From: Promethearchaeota archaeon
GTDB taxonomy: Archaea; Asgardarchaeota; Hermodarchaeia; Hermodarchaeales; Hermodarchaeaceae
Direction of reading: 5' to 3'
Length of the DNA: 30,777 bases
NCBI GenBank assembly: GCA_048938295.1
Contig: JBHLMI010000027.1
Coordinates: forward strand, 4,650 to 35,426
The notes beneath the pieces are model-generated. The model ran no database searches, was not told the DNA's origin, and saw only the letters and a list, made by a program, of their open reading frames with translations. A program made the position numbers and the translations under genes. Of this stretch, positions 13,432 through 27,645 are shown piece after piece (positions within the stretch are counted from its first letter, which is position 1; each line of letters begins with the position of its first letter).

Positions 13432-14373
13432 ATGACAATGACAAACGAATGTACGATATGCAAGGCAGAATCAGTTATGTCTCGACCCTACTCAGGTGAA
13501 GTGCTTTGTGCGCGCTGCTTCAAGGACTCTGTTACCAATGCTGTGCGGATGGCTATTTCAAAGTACAATATGCTTGAACGCACAGATCGAATTGCTGTTG
13601 GCTATTCAGGGGGAAAAGATAGCACCGTACTCTTAGCGATTCTGGTTGAGATCCAGCAACGTTTCCCTGAATCGGAAGTCATAGCTATAACCCTCGAAGA
13701 AGGCAACAAACAAGATCTTGCACGTCAAGAGGTGTTACAAAGTGTCACGAACACGCTCAAAGTAGAACATATAACAGCCTCATATCAGGATATGTTTTCC
13801 CTTACGCTTGATGAAATCGCGACTCAGGCACGAGCTATACAATCACCCCTCTCCCCATGTGCTTATTGTGGAACCCTTAGGCGACAGGGACTGAACCTGC
13901 TAGCTCGCAAAATTCAAGCCGATAAATTAGCCTTAGGGCACAATCTGGATGATGAAGTTCAATCGATGCTAATGAATCTCATTCGTGGAGATTTACCCCG
14001 ATTATCACGGATTACTCCACACCTGAAGGGTGTTTCTGGCTGGCTAGTACCCCGAATTAAACCCCTGTTTCATATTCTCGAATCTGATCTTGACCTCTTC
14101 GCTAAATTACTTGGGTATCCTGTCTACCATCCCCCCTGTCCCTACAAAGAAACCTCACTTCGCTCTGAATTCCGTGAATGGCTCAACATATTCGAAGCCA
14201 AACATCCTGGCTCTAAATATAACCTTCATGCTACCTTCACGAAAATCATCGAAACCATTCAACAAGAAGAAGTTCCGTTCCAAAAATGTCAGAGTTGTGG
14301 GGAAATCACATCCCAGCGAATATGTGCAGTATGCCTTCATAAGAAAGCCCTGGGCTTCTCATCATCAAAATAG
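13432..14373 (+). CDS. ttuA: tRNA 2-thiolation protein (TtuA/Ncs6/NcsA family)
   Basis: N-terminal CxxC...CxxC, PP-loop SGGKDS, CAYCG, GHNLDD, RIKPL and C-terminal CxxC...CxxC. Confidence 0.9.
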   Translation: MTMTNECTICKAESVMSRPYSGEVLCARCFKDSVTNAVRMAISKYNMLERTDRIAVGYSGGKDSTVLLAILVEIQQRFPESEVIAITLEEGNKQDLARQEVLQSVTNTLKVEHITASYQDMFSLTLDEIATQARAIQSPLSPCAYCGTLRRQGLNLLARKIQADKLALGHNLDDEVQSMLMNLIRGDLPRLSRITPHLKGVSGWLVPRIKPLFHILESDLDLFAKLLGYPVYHPPCPYKETSLRSEFREWLNIFEAKHPGSKYNLHATFTKIIETIQQEEVPFQKCQSCGEITSQRICAVCLHKKALGFSSSK

Positions 14374-14381
14374 GATAAGGG

Positions 14382-14732
14382 GTGGACGATGAACCCCGAC
14401 GGTCGTCAACCCTCCCTGAAGCCGTACTCACAGCCAGGTCTCAGACCCGGATCTCGGAAGCATCTACAGTACAGGCTTACGCTGCTCCCTCCCGGGCCTA
14501 GCTGGTTTCACCCGATAAAGACGATTCAGCCCTTCCTACGAAAAGCCTACCGCCACCAGCGATCCTCCGAGGCGGATCATCACAGCCTTAAACAGTGAGT
14601 CGTACAACAGGTCAGAAAGCCTAACATCGGCATTCAGCCCGCCGTATAGAGCGTTTGCGGTGCAGGGGAGCCTTAGCCAGCCCGTAGCGGTGCTGCCGGG
14701 CTTCTAGCCCCCCGCCTAGGCTCACCGTCCAC
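14382..14732 (-). ncRNA. ffs: SRP (7S) RNA with a putative 31-nt BHB-type intron (14703-14673)
   Basis: Helix 1 GTGGACGGTGAGCC/GGTTCATCGTCCAC; helix 6 with a GTAG tetraloop; helix 8 CTAGGCCC-GGGA-GGGAGCAGC. Length 351 nt, or 320 nt after removing the insertion. Confidence 0.93.
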
Positions 14733-14753
14733 TCAGCTCACACAACTCCGCGA

Positions 14754-14760
14754 TATTTAA
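14754..14760 (-). promoter_or_regulatory. TATA box of the SRP RNA gene
   Basis: TTAAATA 22-28 nt upstream of the SRP 5' end. Confidence 0.65.
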
Positions 14761-14763
14761 TGT

Positions 14764-15258
14764 TTACTTAGGGCGCTGTTTTACACGCCAAATCTGAAAG
14801 ATGTAAACTGGAATAGCAATAATGAAGCATAAGACACAGAACAGATAGATTGTTGAAGACGATGCAAGACCAAGAAAGGGGTTTACTAGCAGTGGCCAGA
14901 ATGGCTGCATTTCAGGATACAAGAAGCCGTCTAATACAATATGTGAGTAGGCCCCGATTAGGGCTGCGGCAGTGATGTTTAACAGCGAAGCTGTTTGCGG
15001 GAGAAGGAAGAACGCCATGATCTTTTCAAAGATGCTTCGAAGAAGATAGATTACAAGGACCCCAATTAGAGCTAAGATGGTGGCTCCTAAGAAAGTATGA
15101 AAGAACAGATGTTGCACTGGTAAACCGAGGAGAAGGAAGGTGAGTGGTTCAATGTCGACGATGATGCTTCCGAGGAGGATGCTGGGTAGAAATAGGTAGG
15201 GAAAGAGTATCAATCCAATCAACAAGCCTGGACCTAAATGGAAGGGGGTAAACGGCAT
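14764..15258 (-). CDS. Conserved membrane protein, possible metal-dependent hydrolase
   Basis: MPFTPFH start, DIEP, HLFFHT, SHIVLD and P(F)WP; hydrophobic. Confidence 0.7.
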   Translation of the reverse strand: MPFTPFHLGPGLLIGLILFPYLFLPSILLGSIIVDIEPLTFLLLGLPVQHLFFHTFLGATILALIGVLVIYLLRSIFEKIMAFFLLPQTASLLNITAAALIGAYSHIVLDGFLYPEMQPFWPLLVNPFLGLASSSTIYLFCVLCFIIAIPVYIFQIWRVKQRPK

Positions 15259-15897: not shown

Positions 15898-16006
15898 TGG
15901 TGGGCCGAGAGGGACTCGAACCCTCGACCATCGCGGTGTAAGCGCGATATCATAGCCCTCTAGTCTAAGAGAATATCCTCCTCTCAGATAGCTAGACTAT
16001 CGGCCC
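15898..16006 (-). tRNA. tRNA-Val(TAC) with a 32-nt D-loop BHB intron (15989-15958, 17/18)
   Basis: Spliced GGGCCGATAGTCTAGCT/GGCTATGATATCGCGCTTACACCGCGA...CCCACCA. BHB: CTAG/CTAG helix, bulges CTA and AGG, intron stem TCTGAGAG/CTCTTAGA. Confidence 0.93.
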
Positions 16007-27523: not shown

Positions 27524-27645
27524 AGTGGCGCAGTTCACGCTTTTCCCGACACCTCGCGGATATCAGTACTCAGAGCGACGAAACCGGCTTAACTTCCGGG
27601 ATCTGACGAGACCGGGTGTGACCCAGCTTCTATGACCGCGCCACC
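27524..27645 (-). rRNA. rrf: 5S rRNA (stand-alone)
   Basis: 122 nt; terminal helix GGTGGCGCGGT/ACTGCGCCACT; conserved CACACCCG...CCCGGAAGTTAAGCC; followed by a U-rich tract. Confidence 0.93.

Follow-up and report, generated by a model that had tools for sequence, protein, structure and literature searches.

Evidence for an internal BHB intron in a collinear SRP RNA gene of Asgard archaea

EndA-dependent splicing is not confined to tRNA: it also acts on rRNA and on one mRNA, and it joins the ends of a permuted SRP RNA. It follows the BHB rule, according to which the cut is placed two nucleotides into each of the 3-nt bulges that flank a 4-bp central helix. For Crenarchaeota, Watanabe et al. 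in 2002 and Yoshinari et al. in 2006 reportedly described BHB introns in the cbf5 mRNA and in rRNA genes; these host genes differ from the SRP RNA considered here. For SRP RNA itself, the closest published case that we found is that of Thermoproteus tenax and T. uzoniensis, where a circularly permuted SRP RNA requires, for its maturation, a BHB motif together with RtcB and a heterotetrameric splicing endonuclease (Plagens et al. 2015, eLife, PMC4731332). An earlier sequence-only reading of the present locus had likewise named the permuted Thermoproteus RNA as the only described instance of BHB processing of an SRP RNA. In the same publication, a collinear SRP RNA with a simple BHB intron was hypothesised, not reported, as the precursor of the permuted Thermoproteus gene (PMC4731332). 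Our full-text literature searches, which covered publications outside subscription journals, found no published internal SRP RNA intron.

Here, we describe a collinear SRP RNA gene with an internal BHB intron in two Asgard classes, Hermodarchaeia and Atabeyarchaeia, and RNA data show removal of the intron in the former. As in Thermoproteus, the SRP RNA carries a BHB motif, and a heterotetrameric-type EndA and RtcB are encoded in the genome, with the roles of these enzymes in Hermodarchaeia being presumed ones. However, the Thermoproteus gene is permuted and its leader-trailer BHB joins the ends into a circle, whereas the Hermodarchaeia gene is collinear and is interrupted internally by a 31-nt intron in the helix-3 loop. 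The lineages differ as well, since Thermoproteus belongs to the Thermoproteales and the organisms described here are Asgard archaea. The locus also resembles the relaxed HBh'-type pre-tRNA introns of archaea, including Asgard archaea (PMC11291895; 10.64898/2026.10.13.758758), with which it shares the logic of the motif (a 4-bp helix, cuts two nucleotides into the bulges and a stem within the intron), the presumed enzymes and a similar size. Unlike these introns, it resides in an SRP RNA and not in a tRNA, and the term 'SRP' is absent from the text of both of these works. SRP RNA can be added as a new host RNA for internal BHB introns.

The window, i.e., the whole stretch of 30,777 nucleotides that was analyzed, belongs to a Hermodarchaeia (Asgard) MAG of 2.52 Mb with a completeness of 91.6%. 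Its minus strand matches the Rfam model RF01857 end to end at 14727..14387 (123.1 bits, E 7.8e-28, gathering score 96.5, model positions 1-317). By these boundaries, the SRP RNA is 341 nt long as encoded, or 310 nt after excision, which corrects the length of 351 nt assumed in the sequence-only reading. The sole large deviation from the model is found in the helix-3 loop, which holds 32 unaligned nucleotides versus 2 in RF01857; the alignment of the unspliced gene to an archaeal SRP model, a check suggested beforehand, thus left the insert unaligned at exactly this place. The letters of the insert, its coordinates 14673-14703 and the partner GCUCUA at 14652-14647 agreed with the earlier description. 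The minus strand of this region has the sequence GGGG-GGCU-AG↓A-AGCCCG-GCAGCACCGCUA-CGGGCU-GGCU-AA↓G-GCUCCCC, where GCAGCACCGCUA is 12 nt long and the arrows, which mark the cuts here and below, enclose 14703..14673. A blastn-short search of the whole genome returned no other copies of the intron and no sign of a mobile intron family. The parts of the gene are as follows.

14387..14727, minus strand: SRP (7S) RNA gene (RF01857), 341 nt encoded and 310 nt after excision
14704..14727, minus strand: exon 1, comprising the 5' end, a helix 2 strand and the helix 3 5' strand ending in ...GGGGGGCUAG (from the RF01857 alignment and the letters of the X6 contig)
14673..14703, minus strand: 31-nt intron, very probably, AAGCCCGGCAGCACCGCUACGGGCUGGCUAA (unaligned to the Rfam model, depth 0 in four RNA runs, contig arithmetic)
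14387..14672, minus strand: exon 2, beginning with GGCUCCCC and comprising the remainder of the SRP RNA (RNA contigs in X1, X3, X6 and X8)
14647..14652, minus strand: loop of helix 4, GCUCUA, which pairs with UAG↓GGC across the junction (6 bp, covariation)

The removal of the insert was followed in assembled metatranscriptome contigs, not in raw reads of a pure culture. Twelve runs recorded as RNA contain part of the SRP gene, and the contigs of four metatranscriptomes from four studies (X1, X3, X6 and X8) were aligned to 14340-14780. Exon 2 was covered in all four runs, and no contig in any of them covered the interior of the insert, with a depth of 0 over 14685-14729. In three studies, the match of the longest contig ended at exactly 14678 (X1 record 1, X6 record 11 and X8 record 15). 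This end point is expected for a spliced RNA because the end of exon 1, CTAGCC (14704-14709, plus strand), resembles the end of the intron, TTAGCC (14673-14678); a spliced contig would align six letters into the intron and then diverge. Past 14678, the X6 contig continued with CCCCGCCTAGGC, which is identical to exon 1 at 14710-14721 on the plus strand, and then entered the Illumina adaptor. Its 277 aligned and 12 loose letters add up to 289, which equals the 272 letters of 14401..14672 plus the 18 letters of 14704..14721 minus a single 1-nt deletion at 14590. The contig thus lacks exactly 31 nt and joins the two exons. No formal joint between the exons was called in the contig alignment, where only 12 letters extend past the junction. 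The excision proposed in the sequence-only reading is supported by these contigs: those of three studies leave the DNA at 14678, and the one of X6 bridges exon 2 to exon 1.

With regards to the origin of these contigs, X1 record 1 differs from the window by 2 letters in 269 nt (approximately 99% identity), and for the X8 contig three variants are listed (14500, 14513 and 14579), exactly those that separate the genome G001 from the window in this range. The DNA of G001 carries the insert. Taken together, the identity of X1 and the variant match between X8 and G001 make a DNA allele without the insert an unlikely source of the contigs. The X6 contig stems from an unsampled species of the window's family. 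The mismatch counts also bear on the junction itself: 3 of the 4 other letters of X8 and 1 of the 2 of X1 are listed, which leaves one unlisted mismatch each, and a C on T at 14673 near the aligned end would account for it. These counts suggest G (UAG↓GGC) rather than A (UAA↓GGC) as the junction base. A search for runs with 78 nt centered on the intron, from which only 3 words were sampled, listed only runs of DNA type, which speaks neither for nor against splicing. From the contig data, we conclude that the mature SRP RNA almost certainly lacks the 31 nt; since contigs drop rare variants, a minor unspliced fraction is possible.

Shortened contigs could in principle also arise when the reverse transcriptase jumps between the GGCUA repeats at a stable hairpin, or when the assembler collapses the repeat. 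The 5-nt direct repeat that borders the hairpin (GGCUAG / GGCUAA) is a classic setting for template switching, and the data are assembled contigs. We consider such an artefact very improbable, however, as the end point was identical in three studies with different library types and depths of 41 and 65, and a contig of the unspliced form was found in none of the four runs (0/4). A jump would further be expected to retain the 3' copy (UAA), whereas the mismatch counts fit UAG, and an artefact would leave unexplained why a canonical BHB motif is found at the same loop in Atabeyarchaeia.

The predicted product points in the same direction. Excision yields GGGGGGCUAG joined to GGCUCCCC (GGGGGGCUAGGGCUCCCC), which is near to helix 3 of Asgard relatives that lack the intron (GGGGAGCUAGGGCUUCCC in G027, GGGGAGCUAGGGCUACCC in G021 and GGGAAGCUAGGGCUCUCC in G042), with the CUAGGGCU loop in common and few differences in the stem. 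The insert divides the helix-3 loop between UAG and GGC. The sequence-only reading had claimed a 6-bp pairing of the new junction UAGGGC with GCUCUA, which lies in the helix-4 loop. This pairing is real and covaries both within Hermodarchaeia and across families. Among the Hermodarchaeia, G018 combines UAGGGU with ACUCUA, a compensatory change from C-G to U-A, and G004 combines UAGAGC with GCUCUA, turning a G.U into an A-U pair. Across families, the loop pairs UAGGGG/CCCCUA, UAGCGG/CCGCUG, UCGGGC/GCUCGA and, in Atabeyarchaeia, UAGGGC/GCCCUA were found. An alternative register, CUAG/CUGG with cuts at AA↓G and CU↓A, was also evaluated (-10.3 kcal/mol) and was rejected; its product GGGGGGCUAGAAAAGGCUCCCC would destroy the loop pairing, which bears out the earlier remark that this register does not restore it.

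The precursor contains the following elements of a BHB motif around the two cuts.

14706..14709, minus strand: central BHB helix H, 5' strand GGCU in exon 1, pairing with 14675-14678 (G.U, G-C, C-G, U.G)
14675..14678, minus strand: central BHB helix H, 3' strand GGCU in the intron, duplicating the GGCU with which exon 2 starts
14703..14705, minus strand: 5' bulge A-G↓A of 3 nt between H and the inner stem, with the cut placed after 14704 by the BHB rule and the product
14697..14702, minus strand: inner stem h', 5' strand AGCCCG, pairing with 14679-14684
14679..14684, minus strand: inner stem h', 3' strand CGGGCU, partner of 14697-14702
14669..14674, minus strand: 3' cut region, a relaxed 6-nt loop A-A↓G-G-C-U with the cut placed after 14673, not a canonical 3-nt bulge
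14665..14668, minus strand: outer helix h, 3' strand CCCC, pairing with GGGG at 14710-14713 and invariant in 18 sequences

This motif is kept in all 18 distinct Hermodarchaeia sequences. Helix H (GGCU/GGCU) forms a standard pair in 100% of the cells, and a U-to-C change in 5 of the 18 sequences not only converts one of its G.U pairs into G-C but also disrupts an A-U pair in the competing minimum-energy fold. Five pairs of the inner stem (AGCCC/GGGCU) are conserved; C changes to U opposite G twice, and pairing is retained. The sixth pair (G-C) is found only in the window's sequence. The inner stem of 6 bp read earlier holds for the window, yet across the 18 sequences it has to be reduced to five pairs; the 4-bp helix, the 3-nt bulge on the 5' side and the relaxed outer side closed by GGGG/CCCC were all as read. 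Each cut falls two nucleotides 3' of one strand of the same 4-bp helix, in keeping with the BHB spacing rule. On the 3' side, three further unpaired nucleotides follow AA↓G before CCCC/GGGG, and the outer helix h is separated from H by the 6-nt loop. The Hermodarchaeia motif is hence of the relaxed HBh' type and not of the strict hBHBh' type.

In a 60-nt context, the BHB conformer reached -22.5 kcal/mol versus -32.3 kcal/mol for the minimum-energy fold. The difference of approximately 10 kcal/mol arises because the GGCU of the intron and the identical GGCU of exon 2 compete for one partner in exon 1, and it is the exon-2 copy that occupies this partner in the minimum-energy fold. The resulting extended helix 3 was rejected as the relevant fold of the precursor, as it contains the A-U pair that is broken in 5/18 sequences and offers no BHB motif.

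The genome encodes two EndA paralogues, which are of the catalytic and the structural type, respectively, by sequence comparison. The protein of 186 aa most resembles the catalytic chains in heterotetrameric enzymes of Crenarchaeota (PDB 3p1z, 3ajv and 2zyz; E 2e-45 to 2e-31), with 3p1z_B as the best match (E 2e-45) and 2zyz_B among the others, and its sequence has the Tyr, His and Lys positions. The second protein of 196 aa also matches the structural chains 3p1z_A, 3ajv_A and 3iey_B. RtcB is encoded in the genome as well (567 bits). It is established that the two-subunit EndA family has the most relaxed BHB recognition (PMC4731332), and two EndA paralogues were described in 44 of 60 Asgard genomes (preprint 10.64898/2026.10.13.758758). 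We infer that EndA acts as the cutter and RtcB as the joiner.

Another route would be the removal of the insert from the RNA by other nucleases and a ligase, or by self-cleavage, with the BHB-like fold being incidental. The relaxed 3' side of the motif and the fact that the motif is not the minimum-energy fold would fit this view. Nevertheless, both cuts agree with BHB spacing around a single conserved 4-bp helix, a strict motif exists in the neighboring lineage of Atabeyarchaeia, and an EndA type of broad specificity is encoded together with RtcB. Rfam furthermore returned no ribozyme family in the window. Overall, we give this route only slight credence.

The same genome provides a second example of a BHB insert in a stable RNA gene, located 1.2 kb from the SRP gene. 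This tRNA gene and a 5S rRNA gene were found at the following positions of the window.

15901-16006, minus strand: tRNA-Val(UAC) gene of 106 nt, missed by ARAGORN
27525-27643, minus strand: 5S rRNA gene, collinear (77 bits, model positions 1-120)

The tRNA-Val gene was missed because of a 32-nt insert in its D-loop (15958-15989), which carries a canonical hBHBh' motif with a CUAG/CUAG central helix and the bulges CU↓A and AG↓G. When 30-33 nt were removed in silico, ARAGORN called the tRNA. For the whole genome, ARAGORN reported only 20 tRNA genes, 12 of them with an intron call. Non-canonical introns probably conceal most tRNA genes of this genome, in line with reports on other Asgard classes; introns were described in 92-95% of the tRNA genes of Atabeyarchaeia and Freyarchaeia, many of them at non-canonical positions (PMC11291895). 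The SRP RNA intron extends this picture of Asgard archaea as unusually rich in introns in their stable RNAs.

To place the insert among its relatives, the 5' region of the SRP RNA was read for approximately 70 genomes over the sampled Asgard families. Within the window's family, the insert is present in the DNA of all 15 genomes with an SRP match (15/15, two genera), and the SRP RNA measures 338-342 nt. An insert in helix 3 was found in only two of the 27 sampled families, namely the window's own (f1) and that of the Atabeyarchaeia (f12). An exact-pattern scan of species-representative genomes found the architecture in MAGs that are mostly titled Hermodarchaeota, Hermodarchaeum or Promethearchaeota, and in addition in three Atabeyarchaeia genomes. 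In the latter (CP147779, L055; MAG LC30, L059; CP147780, L063), a different insert of 30-31 nt is located in the same loop, displaced by 2 nt in the 3' direction.

In these three genes, the sequence is GGGGGG-CUAG-GG↓A-(23-24-nt stem-loop)-CUAG-AA↓C-UCCCC. Their motif is fully canonical, with a perfect CUAG/CUAG central helix, two 3-nt bulges (GG↓A and AA↓C) and a UCCCC/GGGGG outer helix directly next to it, and both the CUAG/CUAG helix and the GGA bulge are part of the minimum-energy fold. The inner stems differ in sequence (CUCAGG.../...CUUGGG, CUCAGG.../...CCUGGG and CCUA.../...UAGG), and compensatory changes keep their pairing. By the cut rule, the product is GGGGGGCUAGGG↓CUCCCC, i.e., GGGGGGCUAGGGCUCCCC, a mature sequence identical to that of Hermodarchaeia. 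Relatives that carry the insert without the BHB geometry had been named beforehand as evidence against splicing; instead, all relatives keep the geometry, and the version of the Atabeyarchaeia is canonical. The introns of both classes have a common layout (A, stem-loop, 4-nt H strand, AA) with no obvious sequence similarity, and may represent either a single old intron whose site has shifted or two independent gains.

That the insert is a lineage-specific expansion hairpin retained in the mature SRP RNA, like the hairpins between helices 3 and 4 of other Asgard families, is hardly credible. In favor of this view, the insert matches the exons in conservation (mean column identity 96%), the minimum-energy fold merely extends helix 3, and extra hairpins nearby are tolerated in other Asgard SRP RNAs. 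Against it, the insert is absent from the RNA contigs of three studies, one of which bridges to exon 1, and it splits a loop whose 6-nt pairing with helix 4 covaries.

It can be concluded that the 31 nt at 14703..14673 are very probably a relaxed BHB intron internal to the SRP RNA that is spliced by EndA and RtcB. The central claim of the sequence-only reading, a true internal SRP RNA intron, is thereby supported by the RNA contigs, the homology of the product, the covarying loop pairing and the conserved motif. In the proposed mechanism, the GGCU of the intron would pair with the GGCU of exon 1 in the precursor and displace the identical GGCU at the start of exon 2. The resulting 4-bp central helix would be flanked by the AG↓A bulge and the inner intron stem on one side, and by the relaxed AA↓GGCU loop closed by GGGG/CCCC on the other. 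A two-subunit EndA of the crenarchaeal alpha/beta type would then cut two nucleotides 3' of each strand of this helix, and RtcB would ligate the exons and probably circularise the intron. Finally, the ligated loop UAG↓GGC would be free to pair with the helix-4 loop GCUCUA, and this tertiary contact would close the Alu domain. Since the loop responsible for this key contact is the one interrupted by the intron, a functional SRP in these archaea would depend on the tRNA-splicing machinery. The annotation of SRP RNA in Hermodarchaeia and Atabeyarchaeia should allow for introns.

A more far-reaching version of the spliced-intron reading, which we regard as unlikely, is that the helix-3 intron is an old trait of the Hermodarchaeia-Atabeyarchaeia ancestor, that it slid by 2 nt (CUAG↓GGCU versus CUAGGG↓CU, with the same mature sequence), and that it was perhaps kept for a splicing-coupled folding of the Alu domain or assembly of the SRP, or for a role of the conserved 31-nt circle. 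If so, the occupied GGCU of exon 1 would delay the contact between the loops of helices 3 and 4 until processing, and Alu-domain folding or SRP assembly would be coupled to EndA and RtcB. Alternatively, the conserved 31-nt circle may have a role of its own.

Several minor observations were made on the SRP RNAs of this data set. In several other Asgard families, an extra hairpin of 15-25 nt lies between helices 3 and 4 (L007, L040, L041, L043, L045, L046, L050, L006, L075-L077 and L082), often flanked by short direct repeats such as CCUGAC...CCUGAC; no BHB geometry was seen in these hairpins in the SRP RNA 5' regions. The MAG contig CAJXGD010000066.1 (L054), which is titled 'uncultured bacterium', has an intron-less SRP Alu domain of the archaeal type with GGGGGGCUAGCGGUCCCC and the helix-4 loop CCGCUA, and the bin is probably mislabelled or mixed. 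In the window itself, position 14500 is an A on the plus strand (U in the RNA, CAGCUAGGCC, 5' strand of helix 8), whereas a C is found in every other Hermodarchaeia genome and in all RNA contigs, including X1 with its identity of 99%. This A is either a strain variant or an assembly error.
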